The position numbers were made by a program, and so were the translations under genes. This document shows, piece after piece, positions 10,376 through 63,205 of a stretch of DNA of 64,000 nt. Source of the DNA: an uncultured bacterium (GTDB lineage Bacteria; Acidobacteriota; HRBIN11; JAKEFK01); NCBI GenBank assembly GCA_963777505.1, contig CAVZQN010000007.1, forward strand, positions 128,001 through 192,000, read 5' to 3'. Position 1 is the first letter of the stretch. Each line of letters begins with the position of its first letter. Under the pieces are notes generated by a model that had not been told where the DNA came from, ran no database searches, and saw nothing but the letters and a program-made list of their open reading frames with translations.

Positions 10376-10963
10376 ATGAATGAAACCGCAGATTCCAATT
10401 CTCAAGCAGCCCACATTACAAAACTTTTAATTGGATATGGAAAAGGTGACCATTCTGCGCTTGATGAAATGTTGCCTCTTGTCTACGAAGAGCTGAAGCG
10501 ATTGGCTGGCCATTATTTAAGGAAGGAGCGTCCTGATCATACTTTACAAACAACAGCGCTTGTTCATGAAGCTTATATGCGGCTTGTGAAACAAGAAAAT
10601 GTTGATTGGAAGAATCGTGCGCAATTTCTTGGCATTGCTGCAGAAATGATGCGGCGAATTCTTGTAAATCATGCCAGGGATCGAGCTGTCGCCAAGCGTG
10701 GAGGCGGCGCCAAACGTGTTTCATTGAGCCTGGTTGTCGATGCAGGAAAACAAGTAGACATTGATCTGGTCGTTCTTGACGATGCACTCAAGAAACTTGC
10801 CGAACTGGATCCACGAAAAAGTCGCGTTGTAGAGATGAAATTTTTCGGAGGCATGACAACTGAAGAAACTGCGGAAATATTGCAGGTGTCAGTTAAGACA
10901 ATTGAACGCGACTGGACAGCCGCACGAGCCTGGCTCTATCGCGCTGTCGTTGGTGAGCATTAA
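10376..10963 (+). CDS. ECF sigma factor, TIGR02999-type (kinase-associated)
   Basis: LVYEELKRLA, HTLQTTALVHEAYMRL, MRRILVNHAR, TIERDWTAARAWL; upstream of a Ser/Thr kinase. Confidence 0.93.
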   Translation: MNETADSNSQAAHITKLLIGYGKGDHSALDEMLPLVYEELKRLAGHYLRKERPDHTLQTTALVHEAYMRLVKQENVDWKNRAQFLGIAAEMMRRILVNHARDRAVAKRGGGAKRVSLSLVVDAGKQVDIDLVVLDDALKKLAELDPRKSRVVEMKFFGGMTTEETAEILQVSVKTIERDWTAARAWLYRAVVGEH

Positions 10964-11008
10964 CACGAAGATACCCTTAGCCTAATATTCCATAAATCCT
11001 TCACCGAA

Positions 11009-11039
11009 TGTCGGGATTCAACCCAAATCCGTGCGCTCT
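11009..11039 (+). promoter_or_regulatory. ECF-type promoter motif upstream of the kinase
   Basis: TGTCGG-GATTCAACCCAAATCC-GTGCGCTCT (16-nt spacer). Confidence 0.65.
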
Positions 11040-11124
11040 ATATATGGAGAATCAACCAAAAGTCTTTCGGAGATATAATCCTGGAGACAAGAAAGAAACC
11101 CATTAGTGGAATTGAACATTCCTC

Positions 11125-14100
11125 ATGTCAGTAGAACGATTCGAGAAAGCCACTGAATTGCTTTGTGCCGCGACTCGAAATTGATTCCGAACAACGTTCC
11201 GGCTTCCTAAAACAGGCCTGTAGCGGTGATGAAGCACTACTGTCGGAAGTCGAGTCGCTATTAGCTGCACACTTTAAAGCTGGACAATTCATCCAAACAC
11301 CTCCTGTTCAAAATGCAATCGATCTGCTTTCTGATCATGAAGAAAGACTATCCACCGGCGAACAAATTGGCGCGTATAAGATTGTTAGAGAAATCGGGCG
11401 CGGTGGGATGGGAGCGGTTTATCTTGCGGAACGATCTGATGAGCAATACAAAAAGTATGTAGCCATCAAATTGTTAAAGCGCGGAATGGATACCGATGAT
11501 TTGCTTCGACATTTCCGCAGAGAACGCCAAATCCTTGCTACCTTCGACCATCCAAACATCGCTCGTTTACATGATGGCGGCAGCACAAAAACAGGCCTCC
11601 CCTACTTCGTCATGGAATATGTTGAAGGCAAGCCGATTGATGATTATTGTGATGAACACGAACTGAATATCACTCAACGTCTGGAACTCTTTCAGCAAGT
11701 TTGCGCCGCCGTTTCGTATGCACATCGGAATCTTGTTGTACATCGTGACATCAAGCCATCCAATATTCTGGTAACAAACGAAGGGATTCCAAAACTTCTG
11801 GATTTTGGAATTGCAAAAATTTTGCAGACGGAAGAACCAGGATTGACTGCAACCGGCATTCGCTTGATGACTCCAGAATTCGCAAGTCCTGAACAAGCAC
11901 AAGGGCTTCCCGTTACCACATCCAGCGATGTTTATTCACTTGGCGTCGTTCTATTTGAACTTTTGACAGGACGTTCGCCATACCTCTTTACAAATCGGAC
12001 ACCGTTAGAAGTTGCACGCGTCATTACTACATCGAACCCACAGTTGCCCAGTGCAATGATTACAGTGAAAGCAAACGCCGGATCTTCGAAATCTTTCAAA
12101 TTTCCCGAAGGAAGCCTCGATCGCTTGCGCCGTAGACTCGAAGGCGATCTCGACAACATTGTGTTGATGGCATTGCGAAAAGAAGCAGCGCGACGATATC
12201 AATCGGTTGAACAATTTTCCGAAGATATCCGCAGACATCTTGAAGGACTTCCGGTTGTTGCACGGAAAGATACTTTCTCATATCGTGCCTCAAAGTTTGT
12301 GCAACGCAATAAAGTTGCAGTTGCCGCCTTCGTATTTGCAATTCTTGCTATTGTCATATCCGCAACTGTCGCTGGCATCATTCAATGGCGCGCGAATCAG
12401 CAAGCGAAATTTTTGCAGGAATTTGGAGCAGAAGCTGCACGTATTGAAGGAATCATGCGTTATGCGTATCTGATGCCTTTGCACGATACTTCGCAGGAAC
12501 GGGAAATTGTTATGAAACGGATTCGAGCCATCACTGCGCGCATGGCTGAATTAGGTAGTAACGCACAAGGGCCAGGCCATTATGCGATTGGAAGAGGATT
12601 CATGGCCTTGCAACAGTATGAAGATGCACGAAAACATTTTGCACAAGCCCTGAATGATCATGAATATAGAACGTCTGAAGTTGCTTACTCATATGGCTTA
12701 ACTTTAGCGATGCTCTATCAGACTGAACTCCAATCAGCTGCCCGCATCGGAAGCAAAGAACAGAGAGAAATGCGGATGAAAGAAATTCAGAAAGATTACA
12801 AAGATCCAGCGCTATCTTTCATTCGTGAAGGAAGACGTTCGGAAGAATATTCAGAGTATGCCGAGGCAGTTGTTGAGTTTCTTGATGAGCGTTATGAGAA
12901 AGCGATTGAAAAATCAGAAAAAGCCTTGCAACAAATTCCATGGTTATATGAATCAAAAAGGTTGGAAGGAGAGGCGTATCGCAGTATTGGAAGGCAATTA
13001 TTTTTTAAAGGAAATCATTCGCAAGCGCTGGATTCGTTCGCGAAAGCGGGTAATGCATTTGAACTCAGCACTCGAATAGGAGCCAGCGATTCCATGGGTT
13101 ACGTAGGGTTTTGCACCTTGAAGTCGAGCATTGTTCGCGTGCAGATTCGAACAGGTGTGCAAGCAGATACTAATTACAGAATAGGGACGGAATCATGCCA
13201 GAAAGCGTTGATGGCTGACCCGAAAAACGCTGCGGCGTACCTTGCACTTTCTAATATCCATACATCCTGGGCAGAAAATTACACAAATCGCCAAATGGCA
13301 TATAGACGCCCTGTTCTTGAACTGGCGGTTCAAGCCGCTCAAAAAGCTATCTTGTTGAAGCCCCAAAGTTCAGAAATGCATAAGGGAATGGGAATGGCTT
13401 ATTCCAACTTAGCCTATGAGGACATCCTGGACACCGTTGATCCAAGCAAGGCAGTTACTGCCGGTATCGAAAGTTTTGAAAAAGCGACAAAAATCAATCC
13501 AAACGATGTGGATTCACACTTATGGCGCGCTACCTTACTGTGGTACTTAGCTGAATATTTGAGAGAAACCGGTGCAGATCCGCGGGAAGCCTTAGATGAT
13601 GCAAATCCCTCTTTGCAAACCGCTATTCGGTTAAACCCAAACTATTTTAGTGCTTACCATTGTAAAGGAAACATTCATAACGTCAGGGGCCTTTATGAAA
13701 TGGATGTTGGCCTGGACCCAACTGATTCATTGGACTCTGCTCTGGAAATGCTGAAAAAAGCTATAAAAATAAATCCGGGTTATTTCAACGCGTATATTTC
13801 GCTTGGATTTGCAGCTGTAAGTAAAGGAGAATACCTGTCTTTGGTCGGACACAATCCTAATGACACTTTAAATCTAGCAGAGGAAACTTTTCAGAATGCC
13901 ATGCAAATCAATCCCAATTTTCATGAATTATTCAGAGGATTGGCGCAGTCAAATTGGAAAAGAGCAGAATTCTGTGTGGAGCATAAGACAGATCCGACTT
14001 TGTATTTGAAACAGGCGCGATCTTTCATTCAGAAAGCCTTCGAAGCAGATAAGAGTAGCAGAGTCATATATTCGCTTTGGGGAGAGATCGAATTGATTGC

Positions 14101-14527
14101 CGCACGGTGGAAAATGTTACAGCAGAGCAATCCTGAGACCGAACTTCAAAGAGCAATCGAATGGGAAAATCGAGGCCTAAACATAGGTCCTACCCCTAAA
14201 TTCTTTGATGCCTGGTATTCACAGGCAAGAGTGTATCACCGGTGGGCAGAATGGAATCTTGTAAATAAGCGCAATGCGGATCGAGAACTAAGGCTTGGCT
14301 TAGACATGGTATCCAGTGCCCTTAAAATCAAACCACGTTCTGCTGAAATGATTGCAACACGTGGAATCTTTTTTCTTTTTCAAGCGCGTTCAGCGAGCAA
14401 CGTCTCTCAACGCAAAGCATTCGCTGACAAAGCACAAATGACTATCCAAGAGGCGCTCAAATTAAATGCAAATTTAACCCGCTTATACACACCTTACCTC
14501 AAAGAAGCTGAAAGTTTAGTTCAATAA
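11125..14527 (+). CDS. Membrane Ser/Thr protein kinase with C-terminal TPRs (frameshift near 11172)
   Basis: Likely start MSVERFEKATEL at 11125; GRGGMGAVY, VAIK, HRDIKPSN, DFGIAK; TM segment; many TPR-like repeats. Confidence 0.92.
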
Positions 14528-29521: not shown

Positions 29522-32345
29522 ATGAGAAAGTTGTTTTTGATTGCTACGATTCTATTCGTAGCCTTCCAGTTTACTTTTTTCGCTCACGCGGGCGACAAAA
29601 AGTCAAAAAACCAAAAAGCGCTTGATCCCGTCGGCATAAAACAGCTTAAGGAAGAGAGTCCAGCTAAAACCAAAGTCTACGTTTCAGATGCTACGGGCGC
29701 AGTGCGTTTTATCGGATTTGGTGCAGGCGGCGCGAAAGCGCTGGATAAAGCGGCTTCTGCGCAAGATCGATCTCTTTCATTCTTGCAGAAACACGGCAGT
29801 GTTTTTGGATTAAAGAATGCCATGACCGAATTGAAAATCATTGATGAAAGAAGTGATTTTCAAGGCGGAAAACATTTATCCTATGCGCAGCAGTATTTTG
29901 GAGTCCCTGTTTTTGCCGGAGTTCTCAAAACTCACTTCGATGCTGCCGGACAGCTTCGCGCGATTAACGGCACCGTCATTCCGGAAATTAATGTGAATCA
30001 CAATCCCACCAGAAAATCGGATGATGCTGCAGCTTCCGCTCTTGCAAGAATCATTGATCAGAAAGGAAAGGACGAATCGATTTCTGTTGCGGGAACACGG
30101 TTAATGGTTTTTCGTTCAGGGCTTCTACAAGGCGTACCAGGCCAGAATCATCTGGTATGGGAAGTTGAAGTTAGTAACGGAGCAGACGTCCGTGAGTTCG
30201 TTTACATCGACGCGCATACAGGCAAATTTGTAGATCAAATTACCGGTATCGTGGACTCAATGTTTCGTCGTGCATACGATGCGCTCGGTCAAACAGCACC
30301 TGGTCCAAATTATCCGGCCAGTCCCTACTGGGTAGAAGGTAATCCATTTCCGACAGCTTCAACCGAAGCCAACAACATGATTCTTGCCTCTGGCGAAGCA
30401 TATGGATTCTTCTCAACTGCATTTGGCCGCGATTCGTTTGATGGCGTAGGCGGAATCATGGATTCCATTTTCAATCGAGGCAATGCATGCCCAAATGCTT
30501 CCTGGAATGGACAGTTCATTTCATTTTGCCCGGGCACCACTTCCGATGATGTAACAGTACATGAATGGGGCCATGCTTATACGCAATACACGCATGACTT
30601 GATTTACCAATGGCAATCGGGTGCGCTGAATGAATCGTATTCCGATATTTGGGGTGAAACTGTCGATATTATGAACGGACGTCAGACTGACACCCCTGGC
30701 ACTCGTTGCTGCGAATAGCTGCAGTACATCCACAGCATTGCCACCCTCGGTTACAGTTAATTCTCCTCCAGCAATCGCAGGGCAAAAACAAGCAGGCAGC
30801 GCTGCTTTCGGTCCACAGAGCTTCAACCTTACGAATGACATTGTTCTTGCAAATGACGGCGTGGCGGCACCGAGCACAAGCGACGGATGTTGCGCTGCTC
30901 CCTCTTTTGTCTGTGCTCCTAATTCGTGGGCTAACGCCGCAGCAATAGCAGGCAAGATTGCACTTGTTGATCGCGGAACTTGCGGCTTTGAAATAAAGGC
31001 AAGAAACGCCCAGGCAAATGGTGCAGTTGGCGTAATCGTTGCGAACAATACGGCGGGTATCATCAACATGGCTGGCGACGCGTTACCCGATCCCACAATC
31101 CCGTCACTATCAATCCTCCAAACTGATGGTAATGCAATCAAGGGTCAGCTCGCTATCCCTACCACGGTGAACGCAACATTAGCGCGTGGTGGAACAGGCT
31201 CAGATAACACTGTGCGCTGGTTGATGGGTGAAGATGCCACAGCCTTCGGCAGAGCGATCCGCGATATGTGGAATCCAACCTGTTATGGCAATCCCGGAAA
31301 AGTAACCGATACCCAATATTTCTGCGGAACGGGCGATAACGGTGGAGTACATCTGAACTCGGGTGTGCCAAATCATGCATATGCGTTGATTGTCGATGGC
31401 GGTACCTATAACGGCCAAACAATTACTGCGTTAGGGTTTACAAAAGCAGCGCATATTTATTTCCGCGCAATGGCGGTTTACCAGGGTCCGGCAAGTAATT
31501 TCGCAGATCACGAAGTTTCTATCCTTCAATCTGCTGAAGATCTAGTTGGAATGAATCTTCCCGATCTTGCTACGGGTTTGCCTTCAGGCCAAATCATTAG
31601 CACTGCTGATGTCACTGAAGTTGAACAAGCAATGCAAGCAGTTGAAATGAGCACATCGCCTACACAGTGCAACTTCCAGCCGATTCTGGCAAAGAACCCA
31701 CCCGCACTCTGTGCGCCTGGTGACAAGTTGAAAGTACGTTTCAAAGACACTTTCGAAGATGTTGTTTTGTCCAACTCGCTCTGGAGTGTTAGTCATGAAG
31801 CGGTAACACCTGCTGACTTCACAGATCGTGATTGGGTGATTGTCACCGAGCTTCCGGATAATCGTGCAGGAAAAGGCTTCTTTGGAGTCAATCCGAACAT
31901 CGGAACTTGTGGTCCTGGAGGAGATGAATCCGGCGTTCTTCACCTGACGAGTCCTCAGATTACCATACCATCCTCTGCATCGGCTCCAAGGATTTCCTTT
32001 GATCATTGGATCGCAACTGAAATTGGATGGGACGGTGGGAATGTAAAGGTCAGTGTAAACAATGGACCATGGCAGACTGTTCAATCAGCCGCCTTCATCT
32101 ACAATCCCTACAACCTCGTGTTAAACCCTGCTCCAGGGAACACCAACCCGCTCGCGGGACAACCCGCATTTTCTGGAACCGATCAAGGTTCGGTTAGCGG
32201 GTCCTGGGGACGTTCCATCATTAACCTTACTGGGTACGCTGGTCCAAATGATAAGATCAGAGTACGTTTAGATATTGGAAATGATGGATGTACCGGGATA
32301 TTCGGTTGGTACATTGACGACTTCCAGGTCTATACCTGCAAGTAA
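29522..32345 (+). CDS. Thermolysin-like M4 metalloprotease with PA-domain insertion (frameshift near 30715)
   Basis: Signal peptide, FTP/PepSY propeptide, CPNASWNG, HEWGH, GALNESYSD, PA domain (IALVDRGTC), DNGGVHLNSG. Confidence 0.9.
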
Positions 32346-36331: not shown

Positions 36332-37387
36332 TTAGTAACGCTTCCCTTCCCATTTAGGAGTACACAAAAGAAACGGTCGATCAAGATCATAGTTGATACA
36401 CGCCGGCTCTGAAGTCTCTTCCGGAATTTCATCCCATAGATTCTTACAGGAGAGTGCATTCGCCATCGCTTTCGCTATGCTAGTCTTTGCACGAAGATCG
36501 AGATAGAGGAATTGTCCAGCAGGATTGATCTCCAGGAAAACAAATTCTCCATCAGGTTTTCGTCTTAGATCAAATGCTCCATAACGCAGGCCTAATTGGT
36601 TCATGAACTTTCTAAGAGCCGATAAAAGAGAATCAGGAATTATATCTACCCGGCATTGGGTTTCGGGGTCCATGCTCACATCCAGCGGATAGCGGGAATT
36701 CATCGTATCAAACGTTACAGCCTGAACGAATTCATCAATGAGAACTATTCGATAATCTTCGCCGCCAGGAATGAATTCCTGGAATACAACTGGGCAGACT
36801 GCAACATGATCCAGCTTCGCTATCAGTTCATCAGTAATCTCTTGAGTCGGACGCCAAATCTGATCGGTACCAAACAGGGCTTTGAATACAACTCGCTCAT
36901 GATTCCGTATGAAGTTTGCAGCCTCATGAGGTGAGGATGTGACGAGTGTTTCTGGAATAGACATTCTACATTCGCGAGCAACATGCAGCTGAAAAATCTT
37001 TCTTGTGGCAAGAAGGTTCGATTGAAAATAGTTGTACCATCGAATTTTCTGGGACAGAATGGCCATTAGGCCTGCCCAAAAATGGGAGTGTTCCTCAATC
37101 AGGAATTCAGCAACTTCTTTGTTGAGATGATCATTGACTGGAAATGTTGTTGGTCTCCACCACCAGACTGCCTCCACTCGATCAAGATAAAACTTTTCTC
37201 CGTTTTGGTTATGGATGACAACACAGGGCGAATCCGAAAATTGAACTGACGCACAACATTGTCCTGAAAACAGAGAAAAGTCACAAATCAATGCACGCGT
37301 ATTGCGTGTGAGGTGTGGCAGTACCGCTTGTACATGAGGATCGTTTGCCGCTGAAAATATCAACAGATTGGGATGATGTACGGACAT
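36332..37387 (-). CDS. ATP-grasp ligase, RimK/MvdC-D (graspetide maturase)-like
   Basis: VWWWRP, KIFQLHVA, IPETLVT, VFKAL, CPVVFQEFI, YGAFD, FLEINPAGQFL. Confidence 0.85.
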   Translation of the reverse strand: MSVHHPNLLIFSAANDPHVQAVLPHLTRNTRALICDFSLFSGQCCASVQFSDSPCVVIHNQNGEKFYLDRVEAVWWWRPTTFPVNDHLNKEVAEFLIEEHSHFWAGLMAILSQKIRWYNYFQSNLLATRKIFQLHVARECRMSIPETLVTSSPHEAANFIRNHERVVFKALFGTDQIWRPTQEITDELIAKLDHVAVCPVVFQEFIPGGEDYRIVLIDEFVQAVTFDTMNSRYPLDVSMDPETQCRVDIIPDSLLSALRKFMNQLGLRYGAFDLRRKPDGEFVFLEINPAGQFLYLDLRAKTSIAKAMANALSCKNLWDEIPEETSEPACINYDLDRPFLLCTPKWEGKRY

Positions 37388-37463
37388 ACTACAGCTAAAT
37401 GCTCGCGAATATAATATACTGCATAGCGAAATGAATAAGATACTCCATTAGGAGGAGTTCGTA

Positions 37464-38033
37464 ATGGCATCGGATGGAATAACAAAACTGATCAAGGTCA
37501 CACAACAGAAGTCGACAAACGCGAATGAAGAAGCCTTAGAAGGGGCGGCAAACCAGCGATCTAATATAGATAAGCAAAAATCGCTAAGAGATGTACAGAA
37601 AACCCTCGATTCTTTTACGCAAGACTCCTCGATGTCGCGAGCTGATACCAAGGCAACTGCGAAACCCGGTGCGAATTTGAATTCAGGCGCCATTGCCTCA
37701 GAAGCTTCCGTTTCTAAGCCCGCAAGCTATCTCACAAGATTTTCGAAATCGGGCTTTGAGAAGTCCAGTCTGTTTTCAGCAGCCGGGTTAGCAAAAAATC
37801 TAGTCGATGTTCGCTCCAGCCCCACACATTACGCCAGCGGACTCAATGCCTTTGTGAAAGCACTCAGGGAAAGGTTTGAGGAATCAACCAAGGACCTTGA
37901 AGGAAAGGATAAACTGGGAAATTTTGAGATTAATAACTTGCTGAGCGTTTTCAATCAAGCGGAAACTCTGGCAGCTAGCACGAAAAAGAAGACCGATGAT
38001 CAAAACGGTTCTGTAGCCGGGAAGATAGGATGA
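37464..38033 (+). CDS. Putative T3SS needle/filament (SctF/EspA-like) C-terminal helix protein with N-terminal extension
   Basis: AGGAGG RBS; C-terminal INNLLSVFNQAETLAASTKKKTDDQNGSVAGKIG; ATGA-coupled to a TPR gene. Confidence 0.6.
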   Translation: MASDGITKLIKVTQQKSTNANEEALEGAANQRSNIDKQKSLRDVQKTLDSFTQDSSMSRADTKATAKPGANLNSGAIASEASVSKPASYLTRFSKSGFEKSSLFSAAGLAKNLVDVRSSPTHYASGLNAFVKALRERFEESTKDLEGKDKLGNFEINNLLSVFNQAETLAASTKKKTDDQNGSVAGKIG

Positions 38034-38473
38034 CCGAAAAAAACCAACGACAGGAAAAAAACCAGAGCGGTGAACAAGTATCTTCCGAAGCGCTTGCATC
38101 GGCCCTTCATTTTGCTCTACTTCATGAAGAGAACGGCCAGTACGATACTGCTGTAGCCGCTTTCAAATCCCTTCTATTGATGGATCCGTTAAATCCTTAT
38201 TTTCACGCGATGCTCGGCTCGATCTATCAAAGGCAAGGGGATTATGAAAGCGCCATCCAACAATACACGGAAGCACTAAAAATATTTCCATCTGATATAG
38301 ACTCGCTTACCAATCTCGGTGAGATACTGCTGAAGATAGCACAACCCCAAAGAGCTATACAGTGTTTAAAACAAGCAGTGGAGATAGATACAGAGGGGAA
38401 TCATCCCTCCGCGAATCGTGCCCGACTTATGTTGTCCCGTTTACTAGAAACAGTCGATCCAACTTCCAAGTAA
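38030..38473 (+). CDS. TPR protein, T3SS chaperone (SycD/YscG)-like
   Basis: Three TPRs in 147 aa (AVAAFKSLLLMDPLNPYFHAMLGSIY...); acidic; coupled to the upstream gene. Confidence 0.7.
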   Translation: MTEKNQRQEKNQSGEQVSSEALASALHFALLHEENGQYDTAVAAFKSLLLMDPLNPYFHAMLGSIYQRQGDYESAIQQYTEALKIFPSDIDSLTNLGEILLKIAQPQRAIQCLKQAVEIDTEGNHPSANRARLMLSRLLETVDPTSK

Positions 38474-38672
38474 ACCGAAATCGGAACACAATGTCCTGTG
38501 CTTCCGGACGAAAAAAGAAATACCCACGAAGAAGAACTTGACAAGGAGATACTCATTCGTCGCAATTACGCTTAATCCAGTTTCAAAATCATACTTTAGT
38601 GACGATGACTGATTAATAGAGAGCGCTTTCTGCCACTCACTTTTTGCCGGGAGCAAAAGATTTAGTCCAGGC

Positions 38673-39419
38673 TCAGGAAAGGTTCAAGCGTGTTAAAAGG
38701 GGAAAGTGGTCCGAAGCCTGGTTAGCAGGATGCTGATCAACGATGGTGCATTCGGTAAGACGATCGATAAATCTTTCGGGCAAGAAAACGTAATCAAAAC
38801 GGAGATGCGGGTCTCTTGTTGGAAATGTATAGCCTTCGACATCACTATGCAATTTCCGGAAGCCGTCTGCGTAGCCATTCTTTTGAATCAGTTTTACAGT
38901 CTCTCGCTGAACGTCGCGGCCACTTAACCATACAAGGGTGCGTATCCAGTATGGCATTTTTGCAGTTGGCAATAATTCATCAGGCGCAATCGAATTAAAG
39001 TCGCCTGTTAAAACGTGGAATCCTTCTTGATGTTTCTGAATTCCATTCAGCAACGCTTGAATTTCTACCACACGACGCCTTTCACCCCATTTAGAAAACA
39101 TTGCCCTGAGATGAACTCCAAAAATACGTACGTTCGTTCCTGAGGGTTCAAGCTCTAAGAAGCTGTGCCTGGATCCTTTTGGATGATGCCATTCATGATG
39201 TGCAATTTCGATCCGGCTGCAGAAAGCATTGGAATGATTCCGCCTTGAAGCCCAGAATGGCATCTCGCCTAATTTTGAAATTCGCTCAACGGCTGCCGGA
39301 TCGATCGCTTCTTGAAATAAAACAATATCGGGAGCGGCTGTGCGAATCACTTCAGCCAATAAAGATTCCCTGCCTCTGCCACCGTAACGGATGTTATAAC
39401 TGAGAAGAGTCAAGATCAC
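38673..39419 (-). CDS. Endonuclease/exonuclease/phosphatase family protein
   Basis: SYNI, LFQE, VHL, GDFN, RFDY, ASDHFP. Confidence 0.92.
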   Translation of the reverse strand: MILTLLSYNIRYGGRGRESLLAEVIRTAAPDIVLFQEAIDPAAVERISKLGEMPFWASRRNHSNAFCSRIEIAHHEWHHPKGSRHSFLELEPSGTNVRIFGVHLRAMFSKWGERRRVVEIQALLNGIQKHQEGFHVLTGDFNSIAPDELLPTAKMPYWIRTLVWLSGRDVQRETVKLIQKNGYADGFRKLHSDVEGYTFPTRDPHLRFDYVFLPERFIDRLTECTIVDQHPANQASDHFPLLTRLNLS

Positions 39420-41466: not shown

Positions 41467-41542
41467 GTTTTTGCACAGTGTCTCTGCTCGAGGCAATTTA
41501 CAATCCTGCTGTACAATACAAACCAATGGTAAGGGTTCACTG

Positions 41543-42423
41543 GTGATCGGGGAAACTGTTTCACATTATCGCATTCTAAATAAGCTTGGTGGCGGCGGTA
41601 TGGGCGTGGTGTATGAGGCAGAGGATCTGAACCTCAAACGTCATGTCGCACTGAAATTCCTTCCTGAGGATTTAGTTGCAACTCCGGAAGCATTGGAACG
41701 ATTCCGGCGTGAAGCTCAATCAGCATCTGCTCTGAACCATTCGAATATCTGCACAATCCACGAAATCGGCGAACACGAAGGACGTCCTTTCATTGCCATG
41801 GAAATGATGAAAGGAAAAACGTTGAAGCATGTCATCGATGGAATGCCGCTGGAAATCGATCAACTACTGGAACTGGCTACTCCAATTGCGGACGCGCTTG
41901 ATGCAGCTCATGCCGAACACATCATTCATCGCGATATTAAGCCGGCCAACATTTTCGTGACTGAACGCGGGTAGCAAAACTACTCGACTTTGGTCTAGCC
42001 AAACAGACCAGCTGACTGAAATCAGATACGGAGATGCCCACTGCCAGCACACCGCAACAACTCACAAAAAGCGGATCGACTATGGGAACAGTTGCTTATA
42101 TGTCGCCCGAACAAGCACGCGGAAAAGATCTCGATGCACGCACCGATCTTTTCTCATTTGGAGTTGTGCTCTACGAAATGGCAACTGGCGCACTTCCCTT
42201 TGAAGGTAAATCATCCGGAGAAACTCTGGAAGCAATCTTTACAAAAGAACCCGTTGCACCGGTTCGATTGAATTCGAAAGTGCCTGCCGATCTGGAACGG
42301 ATCATCGCTAAAGCGATGGAAAAGGATCGCAATTTGCGATATCAAAGTGCGGCAGATATGCGTACCGATTTGCAGCGATTAAGGCGCGATACATCTATGC
42401 ACTACCGTGCGAGCAGGTCTTAG
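41543..42423 (+). pseudogene. Ser/Thr kinase domain only, frameshifted and C-terminally truncated
   Basis: [28 protein letters not shown], shifted [16 protein letters not shown]; stops right after the kinase domain. Confidence 0.75.
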
Positions 42424-59674: not shown

Positions 59675-59830
59675 GGACTACACTCCCTCACTCTCTTTGG
59701 TAACTAGATTATCATACTCTCAGCTTCTTCCCACGATGTATCATTTAAAATAGGGATTGAAAACTCTTCGTTAGATGTCTGATTAAGAGTTTCATTGCCT
59801 GCTACGACTCACAGGGTACATAATAACTTC

Positions 59831-62800
59831 ATGGAACGCAGCAAATCGGGTGATCACCCTTCAGAACCTGCTGAATCCAACAGCAATTTAGATGACGGTG
59901 AATCCTTTCAAGTTGAAGACTTGCCGACGCAAAGTGGAAGGATCGATACCTTCCAGCCTCATCAGGATGCAACAAAACCGTCACACTTCGGCCGATATGA
60001 AATAAAGAAAAGAATTGGAGCCGGAGGAATGGGTGAGGTTTATCTTGCATACGACACCGTATTGAAAAGATTGGTAGCACTAAAACTCCTTTACGGAAAC
60101 AATCCCGTCTTAGTCCGAAGATTCCTTCAAGAAGCGAGAACACAAGCGAAAGTAGAACATGAATCCATTTGCAGGGTCTATGAAGCCAGTGAAGAAAATG
60201 GTCGGAATTTCATTGCTATGCAATTCATCAACGGAAGGACTTTCACGAATGTTCTGGCGGAGATGAACTTGGATCAAAAGTTACTCGTAATCAGACAGGT
60301 GGCTGATGCGCTTCATGCCGCTCACGTAATCGGATTAGTTCACCGGGATGTAAAACCCGCCAACATCATGGTGGAGAAAAAAGAAGAAGAGGTTTGGAAG
60401 CCATATGTACTTGATTTCGGTCTGGCCCGCGAAAATGACGAACCTAGAATGACTTTGAGCGGTGTCGTAATGGGTACTCCATATTATATGGCTCCCGAGC
60501 AAGCTACCGAAGGTACCCCTCAGCTGGATGGCCGCACCGATGTTTACTCCTTAGGTGCAACTCTATATGAGGCTCTCAGTGGGAAAACTGTTTTTGAGGG
60601 CAGCACTGCAATAGAAATTTTGAAGAAGGTAGCAAACGATAATCCCGTTCCTTTGCATGTCCTTAATCCTAGTATTCCGTTCGAAGTAGAAACCATTGTA
60701 ATGAAATGTTTGGAGAAAGAGCCGGACAGACGATATCAAACTGCTGAAGCACTTTCCGAAGATTTGCGACGTTATATGAATCACGAGCCTATTCATGCGC
60801 GACCTTCGACATGGTCGTACCGTTTGAGCAAGAAAGCCAAAAAACACAAATCGATTGTTGCGATTGTTAGTATCGCGGTACTGGTAACGGTGGCATTATC
60901 AGGTTTACTATTTTGGACGCAATGGAAAGCTCGGCGTCAAGCGCATTATGCAGCAAAGTTCGGCAATGAGGCACGGTTCATTGAAACAACCGTTCACAGT
61001 ATCTTCAGTGCCCCGTTGCATAATGTTCGGCCCCCGCTAGAACAACTTCGGGCGCGCATCGTTCGTATGGAGAAAGAAATACAAAATGAAGGAGCGTTGG
61101 CGCACGGACCGGGATACGACGCACTGGGAATTGGTTATCTTGCGCTGAGAGATTATGGAAAAGCGAAAGAATGTTTGGACAAGGCTTGGAAGTCAGGATA
61201 CCGTGAGCCTTCTACTGCATTTGCTTTGGGAAAGGTATATGGATTCCATTATCAGAAAGCTTTAATTCAAGCATCGCGCCTTCCGGGAAAAACGCTACAG
61301 GATCGAGCTAAGAAAGAAGCTGAAACACTATACGCAAAAACGGCCACCACGTATTTGAATCTAGCCCAAGGGCATGTTGAATCTCCTAATTATGTAGAAG
61401 GACTGATTGCACTCTATAACAAACGTTATTCTGAAGCGTTAGAGAAGGCTGCCCTTGCTTCTGTACAAGTCAGCTGGCCTTATGAGGCAAAAAAACTTCA
61501 AGGGGATGTTCAGATGGCTCTCGCAGCGGAACAAGTCCAGCAAGAAAATTTTGGCGGAGCCGTTCACAGCATCCGTCAAGCTGGAAAGTCCTATGCTGAG
61601 GCAATAGAGTTTGCACGAAGTTCAGAGGAAGCCTACCTGGCTTATGCCGACCATTGGCTTGCCTTACTAAAAATTCAAACACACGCTGGTGGATCCGTTG
61701 ATACGTATTTCAAGGACGCCCTCCAAAGTTGTGAGCGCGCACTTATAACAGATCCCGATGGCGGTGGCGGATATCTTTGCAAATCCAATGCTTATTTTGA
61801 ATACGGCCGTTATCAACAGGACAGGGCTTCATCATCAGCAAGCGAGACTTTGCTGAATTCCGCACGGATGGCAGAGATAGCAGCTTCAAAGCGGCCTAAT
61901 GTAGAAGCAATTTCGAAAGCCGGAACTGCTTATTTCCGAATCGCAGAGCATCAACTTGCAACCGGTATCGATCCGCAGCCAGCTTTGAAAAATTCAATCA
62001 CCAGTTCGGAACGCGCATTACAATTGGATCCTCAATATAACGAAGCATATTACAATCTCGCGGCTGCATACTTCTTTCAAGGCGATTACGAATTGAATCA
62101 TGGACAGAATCCGATGGCTTCTCTGCAAAAAGTGATCGAAATTTTTAACTCGAAACTGGAAGGAGGAGCCCCAACTGAATATGACCGGAATAATATTGGG
62201 CTCGCTCATCTTGATATCGGTATCTACCACCTTTGGCGTGGTGAAGATCCACGTCCACATCTTCAGAAAGCGATTGAACAGTATCGTAAAGCGCTGGAGG
62301 TTAATCCCAAAGCTGTTGCTGTCAGTATGAATCTAGGCCTTGCCTATTTTTTCTTAGCGGCATATGAAATCGAACATGGTTTGGACCCTACTCCGAATTT
62401 AAAGGAAGCCTATCGTGCTTACGACCTACCCACCGCGAACCAGGACAGTCCTCACGCTCACACCAACAAGGCATCCGTTTTACTGCTAGAAGCCGAATAT
62501 AAAATCCTTTTGAAACAAAATCCGGACATCAACCTAAAGAATGCATGGGAACAAACAGAGCTGGCTCTCAAAAATAATCCACAGCTGCCTTATGCTTTAG
62601 TTAATTCCGGCTATGCGTATGTTCTTCGTGGCCAATATGAACTGATGATGAAAAAGGATGCCATGTCTTCTATACAGGAAGCGCGCAAGATTCTTAAGCA
62701 AGCAATCGGGCTGGATCCTACATTTTCTGAGAGTCATAGTCTTTTAGCTGAGACAGAGCTGTTACAAGTCAGACAATTCATTTTACAGAACAAATCACCA

Positions 62801-63205
62801 GCTACTTATCTTGTTGCAGCGAAAGAATCAGCCGGAAAAGCGATTGAGCTCAACCCATTGCAAAGCGTTGGTTTTCGGATTCGCGCAGAGGTGGATTGTT
62901 GGGAAAGTGACTGGTTGATCCGGAACAACAAACCGGCCGCAAATACAATCGCCTCAGGATTGCAATGGATCGAAAAAGGCAAAAAGCAAAACCCTAAAGA
63001 TGCAGAAATGATTGCACTGGAAGGTGTCTTTCACCTACTTACCTCAAAGCAGGCGATAAACAATGAGAAGGCACAAGAAGATGTTGAGAAAGCACTGAAT
63101 TGCTTTCAGCGTGCTTTTCAGTTGAACCCTCTCATTCAGCAACATTACGAGCCTCAATACCTCGAAGCGTTAAACTCAAAGGCTACCAACCCAATCGAAT
63201 CCTAG
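59831..63205 (+). CDS. Membrane Ser/Thr protein kinase with C-terminal TPRs
   Basis: GAGGMGEVY, VALK, HRDVKPAN, DFGLAR, GTPYYMAPEQ; TM segment; TPRs; paralogue of 11125..14527. Confidence 0.93.
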   Translation: MERSKSGDHPSEPAESNSNLDDGESFQVEDLPTQSGRIDTFQPHQDATKPSHFGRYEIKKRIGAGGMGEVYLAYDTVLKRLVALKLLYGNNPVLVRRFLQEARTQAKVEHESICRVYEASEENGRNFIAMQFINGRTFTNVLAEMNLDQKLLVIRQVADALHAAHVIGLVHRDVKPANIMVEKKEEEVWKPYVLDFGLARENDEPRMTLSGVVMGTPYYMAPEQATEGTPQLDGRTDVYSLGATLYEALSGKTVFEGSTAIEILKKVANDNPVPLHVLNPSIPFEVETIVMKCLEKEPDRRYQTAEALSEDLRRYMNHEPIHARPSTWSYRLSKKAKKHKSIVAIVSIAVLVTVALSGLLFWTQWKARRQAHYAAKFGNEARFIETTVHSIFSAPLHNVRPPLEQLRARIVRMEKEIQNEGALAHGPGYDALGIGYLALRDYGKAKECLDKAWKSGYREPSTAFALGKVYGFHYQKALIQASRLPGKTLQDRAKKEAETLYAKTATTYLNLAQGHVESPNYVEGLIALYNKRYSEALEKAALASVQVSWPYEAKKLQGDVQMALAAEQVQQENFGGAVHSIRQAGKSYAEAIEFARSSEEAYLAYADHWLALLKIQTHAGGSVDTYFKDALQSCERALITDPDGGGGYLCKSNAYFEYGRYQQDRASSSASETLLNSARMAEIAASKRPNVEAISKAGTAYFRIAEHQLATGIDPQPALKNSITSSERALQLDPQYNEAYYNLAAAYFFQGDYELNHGQNPMASLQKVIEIFNSKLEGGAPTEYDRNNIGLAHLDIGIYHLWRGEDPRPHLQKAIEQYRKALEVNPKAVAVSMNLGLAYFFLAAYEIEHGLDPTPNLKEAYRAYDLPTANQDSPHAHTNKASVLLLEAEYKILLKQNPDINLKNAWEQTELALKNNPQLPYALVNSGYAYVLRGQYELMMKKDAMSSIQEARKILKQAIGLDPTFSESHSLLAETELLQVRQFILQNKSPATYLVAAKESAGKAIELNPLQSVGFRIRAEVDCWESDWLIRNNKPAANTIASGLQWIEKGKKQNPKDAEMIALEGVFHLLTSKQAINNEKAQEDVEKALNCFQRAFQLNPLIQQHYEPQYLEALNSKATNPIES

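Follow-up and report, generated by a model that had tools for sequence, protein, structure and literature searches.

The needle subunits of type III secretion systems (T3SSs), the SctF proteins (MxiH, PrgI, YscF and AscF), are hairpins of about 70–90 amino acids (aa) whose amphipathic C-terminal helix runs to the very end of the protein with the pattern Q..(L/M)S.(Y/F)N....S..K..D.....I..K, and their genes sit with those of the injectisome core (SctV, R, J, N and C). In SctF/SctG pairs the chaperone gene lies directly downstream of the needle gene and overlaps it; specifically, ascF ends and ascG starts at the same base. Tetratricopeptide repeat (TPR) chaperones of classes II and III are described as holding self-assembling helical substrates before export, with needle clients held by their C-terminal helix (PMC13466201, PMC3084799), and the large subunit of the class III chaperones is described as having a TPR-like palm (PMC13466201). 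Needle and filament subunits have so far been treated as confined to injectisome loci. Here we consider a two-gene unit within a 64,000-nucleotide stretch of an uncultured acidobacterial genome (assembly GCA_963777505.1, contig CAVZQN010000007.1, positions 128,001 to 192,000; below, the window), which consists of an open reading frame (ORF) that we call ORF A and an overlapping gene for a TPR protein. We give an even chance to the reading that the two form a T3SS-style client–chaperone cassette, orphan in this assembly. ORF A itself is a divergent member of a wider family that, judged by context, is largely unrelated to T3SSs, and it is not a needle subunit proper.

Comparing this unit with the described pairs reveals both likenesses and differences. 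As in the SctF needles, a predicted amphipathic helix ends at the C-terminus of ORF A, and as in the SctF/SctG pairs the putative chaperone gene is directly downstream and overlapping. However, ORF A is 189 aa long and has no predicted turn, the partner of its C-terminal helix being a distant N-terminal helix; the small co-chaperone gene of the SctE/SctG needle chaperone pair is absent here; and none of the injectisome core genes is found in the assembly that carries ORF A. The TPR protein resembles the class II chaperones (LcrH/SycD, IpgC and PcrH; TIGR02552) in its size, its three TPRs and capping helix, its profile match over the whole domain and the T3SS linkage of its relatives. Class II chaperone genes, on the other hand, precede those of the translocators (ipgC-ipaB-ipaC), whereas ORF A lies upstream of the TPR gene and lacks a membrane-spanning segment, no hydrophobic segment having been found in it. 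The features of the unit are the following.

37450..37455, forward strand: strong Shine-Dalgarno sequence AGGAGG, read from the sequence, 8 nucleotides before the ATG of ORF A
37464..38033, forward strand: ORF A, 189 aa (coordinates include the stop codon), a member of the unnamed "DKLGNFEIQ" family, without a signal peptide
37464..37649, forward strand: N-module of ORF A, residues 1–62, GI..LI.VTQ.KS.NANEEA..GA..QR, with a long helix predicted at residues 3–63
37650..37820, forward strand: variable, low-confidence middle, residues ~63–119, with a predicted local distance difference test score (pLDDT) of 52–65
37887..38030, forward strand: conserved C-module, residues 142–189, KDLEGKDKLGNFEINNLLSVFNQAETLAASTKKKTDDQNGSVAGKIG, inside a predicted helix at residues 120–188
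37926–38030, forward strand: last 35 residues of the C-module, in flush alignment with the C-terminal helix of SctF
38030..38473, forward strand: TPR gene, 147 aa (coordinates include the stop codon), of the class II (LcrH/SycD/IpgC) chaperone type; the protein contains the motif HPSANRARLM, and a capping helix follows its three TPRs

Both reading frames and their overlap had been picked out by a reading of the sequence alone (below, the sequence-only reading), and both are present: the shared bases, ATGA, are at 38030–38033, and the two genes are translationally coupled. The frame of ORF A is open for only four codons 5′ of its start and therefore conceals no signal peptide. The G+C content is 46.1% in ORF A and 44.6% in the TPR gene, with a genome value of 44.6%, a native base composition that gives no foreign signal in either gene. 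A promoter scan of 37200–38800 found no sigma-70-like sites.

The resemblance of ORF A to needle proteins appears clearly above chance only at the level of its family and through intermediates, and it is therefore necessary to consider the family first. ORF A has 25 relatives in a 90% library and 203 cluster representatives at E ≤ 0.001, whose near-invariant motif, KDLE..DKLGNFEIQ.LMS.(Y/F)NQAETLASSV.KK.DDT...VIGKI, forms the extreme C-terminus in nearly all members. In single scans at E ≤ 10, the Pfam needle family T3SS_needle_F was matched by 47 of 86 members and no other family by more than 8 of 86; at E ≤ 0.01 the count for T3SS_needle_F was 31 of 145 representatives (best 6.6e-6, 26.7 bits). 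Every one of these 31 matches ends at profile position 70–71 and at, or a few residues from, the end of the protein, and many of the T3SS_needle_F matches span both needle helices. NCBIfam adds weak SctF and SctI matches for two family members. These sub-threshold, C-terminus-flush matches suggest that ORF A, as a member of this family, carries a divergent needle-type helix at its very C-terminus: the conserved terminal helix that marks SctF is present, and the similarity is remote.

The link from ORF A to SctF runs through the clients of ORF A's own chaperone family, because both match these clients. A sample of 301 genomes of the phylum contains 12 that encode close relatives of the TPR protein (E ≤ 1e-18), among them 5 of the 6 other genomes of its own family (with as many as 8 copies in one genome), 5 of 8 in a second family, f19, and 1 of 4 in f2. 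The same-strand neighbors of these TPR genes, 5–28 nucleotides away, often have glycine-rich N-termini and end in sequences such as ...SDRIIQNMR, ...AQRIISNF, ...QERLIQNLGG, ...NMAIIRNLKG, ...SMSIIRNIKG and ...SELIRHMRF. Four of the 11 clients scanned match T3SS_needle_F (PF09392) at E ≤ 1, the best at 4.7e-6 over profile positions 1–70; TIGR02105 matches a client at 2.2e-6, and the SseB model matches a client of this lineage at 0.027.

For profile comparisons we used the last 70 residues of 12 clients chosen by position and not by sequence (A8), a 16-client alignment that adds four less needle-like in look (A9; L116, L133, L142 and L152), 50 rows of the ORF A family C-module (A6) and six true SctF proteins (A5: MxiH, PrgI, two from Pantoea, AscF and one from Providencia); both client sets exclude unrelated ORFs further downstream, the 450-aa ORFs from f19 and, at high-GC loci, ORFs in alternative frames. 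Against the six true SctF, hhalign gave the clients a probability of 84.8% (A8; E 6.6e-6, 59 columns) or 86.1% (A9; E 5.1e-6), and the ORF A family C-module was aligned with the same clients at 90.4% (A8; E 1.4e-6) or 75.6% (A9; E 2.4e-5), C-terminus-flush in both cases. The scores of these client comparisons, 28.2–33.6, compare with maxima of 13.2–16.3 over 100 column shuffles and with 8.4–11.0 for reversed templates; all five hhalign comparisons, including the direct one of the family with SctF discussed below, score above every one of the 100 shuffles and above the reversed templates.

In the relatives, this TPR family keeps the company of real injectisomes, a full T3SS of the non-flagellar kind being present in each of the five tested. 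SctV exceeds its curated cut-off in all five relatives tested (787–860 bits, with the cut-off at 692) and SctR does so in four of four, while in two of the relatives (G041 and G128) the gene order is client, TPR, sctV. A genome of the same genus (G001) encodes SctV, U, T, S and R, an O/FliJ-like protein, N, L, J, a Q-FHA protein and a FliA-like sigma factor; one of its TPR paralogs lies directly behind the gene for a needle candidate, a protein of 100 aa whose tail is needle-like, and further client–TPR pairs, two in number, are nearby. The arrangement that the sequence-only reading had seen once, a needle-like client followed by a TPR gene, thus recurs in sister genomes beside or inside genuine T3SS clusters.

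Two observations on these clients stand apart from that comparison. A 190-aa relative of the sctV-adjacent client (P0171) has a glycine-rich N-terminus, ends in ...MNMAIIRNLKG and bears a precomputed PF09392 label, so that Pfam already recognizes N-terminally extended needle-family proteins at least once. In f19 genomes (L122, L129–L131), some TPR paralogs follow not a needle-like client but a 450-aa ORF, which by eye we take to be B12-binding/radical-SAM-like; hence the TPR family may have other clients.

The TPR protein itself was modeled by AlphaFold2 (AF2) with a pLDDT of 92 as seven main helices making up three TPRs and a capping helix. Among the NCBIfam models, LcrH_SycD (TIGR02552) fits it best (69.6 bits over 125 of 136 positions, short of the cut-off of 104.8), and every generic TPR model matches it as well. 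In hhalign, a 20-row alignment of the TPR family (A7) matched IpgC at a probability of 96.2% (E 2.1e-9, 114 columns), whereas AscG reached 2.5%, so that there is no YscG/AscG sequence likeness. Ranked by query TM-score, SycD and IpgC come out on top at 0.74–0.76, tied with the Sgt2 TPR; ranked by E-value, the fold search is led by consensus TPRs. The earlier suggestion of a chaperone like YscG or SycD is accordingly borne out for three TPRs of the SycD/IpgC kind and fails for YscG. The genome that carries ORF A has four small TPR paralogs of 35–37% identity that share the motif HP.ANRARLL, and two of them, on C7, directly follow genes for proteins of 188 and 220 aa.

By analogy with established T3SS chaperones, the TPR protein would hold ORF A before export while both are cytoplasmic, gripping either its amphipathic C-terminal helix, the mode of YscG with YscF, or its N-terminal region, the mode of class II chaperones. 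Such binding would keep a protein of long helices, prone to associate with itself, in solution and fit for export. After its release, ORF A would polymerize on its own or dock, using its N- and C-terminal helices as a pair in the manner of the EspA/SseB-type filament proteins; with no apparatus, ORF A could be a relic or could leave by a different pathway. The AF2 model of ORF A (86 sequences, mean pLDDT 74) has long helices at residues 3–63 and 120–188 and a poorly defined middle. EspA is about 190 aa long, and the EspA/SseB proteins resemble ORF A in this length, in having conserved N- and C-terminal helices around a variable middle and in having a dedicated chaperone. The pointers to them are weak only: the EspA model (PF03433) matched 2 of 86 family members at E ≤ 10 (best 0.037) and not ORF A itself, and an Atlas neighbor cluster has 12% EspA members. 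Furthermore, the EspA chaperone CesA is described as an extended helical protein and not a TPR (PMC13466201).

Several findings weigh against treating ORF A as a T3SS client. On its own, ORF A matches no needle, EspA or SctI model of Pfam or NCBIfam even at E ≤ 10, and a search of PDB chains with ORF A or its family profiles returned no needle protein at E ≤ 10. Foldseek, which the sequence-only reading had proposed for the C-terminal 80 aa, retrieved with the ORF A model only generic coiled coils (SMC, PI3K-iSH2 and Tc-toxin, E ≥ 0.4) and no SctF/EspA-type match, and the modeled C-module has no internal turn, unlike the helix-turn-helix hairpin of SctF. The C-terminus of PrgI as given by that reading matches annotated prgI letter for letter, and its ungapped register flush with the C-terminus is reproduced over 34 columns by family hhalign; in this register, however, only 6 of 35 residues of ORF A are identical, and several hydrophobic positions of the needle helix are missing, with hydrophilic STKKKTDDQNGS where PrgI has TVKVFKDIDAAI. 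That family alignment (A6 with A5) is itself weak, with a probability of 13.5% (E 0.0021), and marginal, scoring 20.7 where the maximum of 100 column shuffles is 19.3 and the reversed template gives 12.5. No family member reaches the Pfam cut-off of 29.4 bits. The claim of a needle-like helix therefore stands for the family and finds no model match in ORF A alone.

Context adds to these points. Neither SctV/FlhA, SctJ, SctR nor any needle-family match was found in the assembly, and tblastn of every ORF from the T3SS regions of G001 and G041 returned from this genome only TPR paralogs and an F1-type ATPase. In a survey of 26 family loci from many phyla (183 ORFs called, 33 shorter than 95 aa and the three longest dropped, 147 scanned), there was no T3SS family among the 147 neighbors, which were housekeeping genes that differ from locus to locus; a TPR neighbor was present at only 3 loci. 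Among the 301 genomes sampled from the phylum, only two match the ORF A family profile (its own genome and one with a partial match), as do none of six other genomes of the order, and many members have hydrophobic or double-glycine-like N-termini that suggest export by different pathways. A score for LcrH_SycD is by itself not specific, since 12 of 14 control genomes also give hits to this model below its cut-off. Finally, the TPR tree leaves 15 of 19 forks open, with very long branches for IpgC and the TPR of the G001 core and support for only two ortholog pairs, and the TPR protein of the window has no close ortholog.

It is also worth considering what "orphan" means here. The assembly comprises 14 contigs and is 95.86% complete, and there is no T3SS gene within the window or in the assembled genome, as the sequence-only reading had noticed for the neighborhood. 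Secretins are found below cut-off only; models built from the lineage clients, run over all reading frames of the genome, recover only the two clients used to build them, and the best hit of a true-SctF model has an E-value of 0.0059 and lies within a frame of 478 aa. Because a binned genome can lose an island, the term holds for the assembly and not surely for the organism: either the bin lacks the island that encodes the apparatus, or the lineage has lost it, with four cassettes left over or serving another route. Neither ORF A nor its neighboring ATP-grasp gene was found in G001, and for this reason an insertion point is not definable. Since its family is sparse in the phylum and absent from relatives, ORF A looks like a sporadic gene in the client slot of a lineage-typical cassette, recruited from a widespread family not tied to T3SSs. 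On the whole, the sequence-only reading is partly supported, and it was right in kind, that is, in seeing a needle-like client with a T3SS-type TPR chaperone.

The wider family invites the alternative that survives best, which is that ORF A belongs to a broad group of small helical proteins that Sec or peptidase-ABC systems export and that work beyond the cytoplasm, as signaling or self-assembling peptides, for instance, with a needle likeness that is ancient or convergent and a TPR protein that is only a local partner or adaptor and unconnected with injection. The labels of the metagenome-assembled genomes (MAGs) that carry the family include Solibacteraceae, Bryobacteraceae, Terriglobia, Alphaproteobacteria, Burkholderiales, Flavobacteriaceae and Chitinophagaceae, as well as Methylomirabilota, Rokubacteria, Tepidisphaeraceae, Chloroflexi/Limnocylindrales, Actinomycetes and one cyanobacterium, a spread over Acidobacteriota, Alphaproteobacteria, Bacteroidota, Methylomirabilota, Planctomycetota, Chloroflexota, Actinomycetes and Cyanobacteria that favors this alternative. 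So do the lack of conserved neighbors and of any T3SS family among the 147 ORFs, the absence of both a T3SS and Hcp from the assembly, and the N-termini: by a crude hydropathy rule, 42 of 148 representatives have Sec-like hydrophobic stretches, and others start with short leaders such as ...ELNAVSGG or ...DLDEAQGG, which we take to be double-glycine leaders. By a rough phmmer count, the N-module of ORF A is common to 36 of 148 representatives, and in nine it directly follows a Sec-like stretch. Nonetheless, ORF A has neither a signal peptide nor a double-glycine leader, with only the four open codons upstream; the family of its coupled TPR protein is T3SS-linked in all five relatives tested; and its C-module matches the T3SS-linked clients of that family at probabilities of 75–90%. 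We consider this alternative less likely than the cassette.

A more speculative and still less likely proposal is that the DKLGNFEIQ family is a needle-type polymerization module outside T3SSs, exported by Sec or by double-glycine ABC transporters to form extracytoplasmic filaments or tubes, and either ancestral to the needle or exapted repeatedly, with ORF A a subunit of this kind captured in a T3SS chaperone cassette. The lineages involved would include some without any injectisome. By their listings, literature word searches turned up no published description of such a needle-like family. Should common descent prove true, a family of 203 representatives with a needle-like tail and, in many phyla, Sec- or double-glycine-like signals would bear on the origin of the needle protein; annotators, in the meantime, gain a well-defined motif, together with a relationship to a Pfam family that lies below threshold and is open to curation.

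Several family members have unusual surroundings. In a 313-aa protein (P0096) the DKLGNFEIQ-type domain lies at residues 32–122, not at the C-terminus, and is followed by a complete Hcp domain of the type VI secretion system (T6SS; PF05638, E 3.5e-38, residues 163–288). The T6SS link that this fusion suggested was not retained, as no Hcp is found in the genome that carries ORF A. The motif GIIIVGGK precedes a needle-like C-module in other phyla (P0076 and L032:2253-2765, with three repeats in L032), and it is found once more at the end of a 127-aa ORF that follows a TPR paralog in the same genome as ORF A (C5, L004:1988-2371). Myxococcota-type relatives on metagenome contigs (L044–L051, clearest in L046:78-4268) share a conserved gene cluster for some seven small helical proteins, including two family paralogs, a 147-aa protein, a protein of ~150–176 aa with weak needle matches (E 0.05) and two proteins that have a hydrophobic hairpin at their center and are transcribed divergently; this cluster has no TPR gene.

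The client–chaperone cassette that we favor could also be read as a pair of the SctX:SctY (YscX:YscY) type, in which a TPR chaperone escorts a small helical client with a functional C-terminal helix and, in the published model, the client helix docks in SctV (PMC9163089). ORF A would then be a regulator or early substrate docking into the SctV gate and not a polymerizing subunit. Weak SctY matches (NF052415) to the TPR protein of the window (1.1e-5, 25.9 bits) and to a G001 paralog (3.9e-7, 30.5 bits) are consistent with such a pair. The known gene order yscX-yscY-yscV is likewise matched by the client, TPR, sctV order, although only in G041 and G128. Both SctY scores, however, fall far short of the required 70 bits, and the LcrH_SycD scores exceed them; the clients match needle models, and no SctX-type family was reported in the client scans; and the assembly has no sctV and thus no SctV for docking. 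These points make the alternative improbable.

Chance adjacency of an ordinary coiled coil and a generic TPR protein is, in our view, slightly less probable again and already disfavored. It would account for the purely coiled-coil fold matches of ORF A, for consensus or designed TPRs and OGT as the best sequence and fold matches of the TPR protein in the PDB, and for both the LcrH_SycD hits in control genomes and the low identity with PrgI. It does not sit well with matches flush at the C-terminus to one Pfam family, with shuffled and reversed controls that fall well under the real scores, or with an architecture that recurs together with T3SS linkage. A last idea, that ORF A is a graspetide-like precursor whose Thr-, Lys- and Asp-rich tail (STKKKTDDQ) is the cross-linked core for the enzyme of the adjacent ATP-grasp gene, which weakly matches MvdD pre-ATP-grasp (E 1.4e-4) and GSH-S_ATP (3.4e-4) below their cut-offs, is very improbable and was rejected, because the two genes are divergent and not co-directional, no ATP-grasp was reported among the 147 neighbor ORFs, and the tail belongs to a motif conserved across phyla without such enzymes.

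Returning to the client–chaperone cassette, its interest lies largely in its lineage. This uncultured group has multiplied a cassette of a long needle-like client and a class II-type TPR gene, with up to 8 TPR copies per genome, and its clients carry long, often glycine-rich N-terminal extensions. One member, the present genome, has four TPR genes, two behind needle-like clients and one behind ORF A, and no detectable apparatus. Such orphan cassettes offer a test case either for chaperone–client pairs after loss of the machine or for the dropout of T3SS islands from bins.

As to the occurrence of ORF A elsewhere, contigs of read length (151–167 nucleotides, 0–6 mismatches) map to 37438–37946, that is, to ORF A only, and come from four soil or rhizosphere runs of three studies, two of the runs being metatranscriptome libraries. 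Such contigs hint at the presence of the gene in soils and perhaps at its transcription there, without proving the latter; sampled-word shares in the sequencing runs are ≤0.15, with no coverage of the TPR gene and flanks.

The remaining observations concern the rest of the window, where the nearest gene to the unit is the following.

36332–37387, reverse strand: divergent ATP-grasp protein, 351 aa, with the weak MvdD pre-ATP-grasp and GSH-S_ATP matches given above

Further away, a Ser/Thr kinase domain is split across ORFs at 41471–41974 and 42034–42423, and a thermolysin-like M4 peptidase is split between 29522–30718 (propeptide and catalytic part) and 30738–32345 (helical part and PA domain); these breaks may be frameshifts or assembly errors. 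An extracytoplasmic function (ECF) sigma factor (PF07638) adjoins a 1120-aa Ser/Thr kinase with TPRs at 10376–14527, and a second kinase–TPR protein of 1136 aa lies further on, the two kinase loci being covered by 10376–14527 and 59795–63205. Regulatory pairs of this make-up, an ECF sigma factor with a kinase–TPR protein, are typical of the lineage and have no connection with the cassette.

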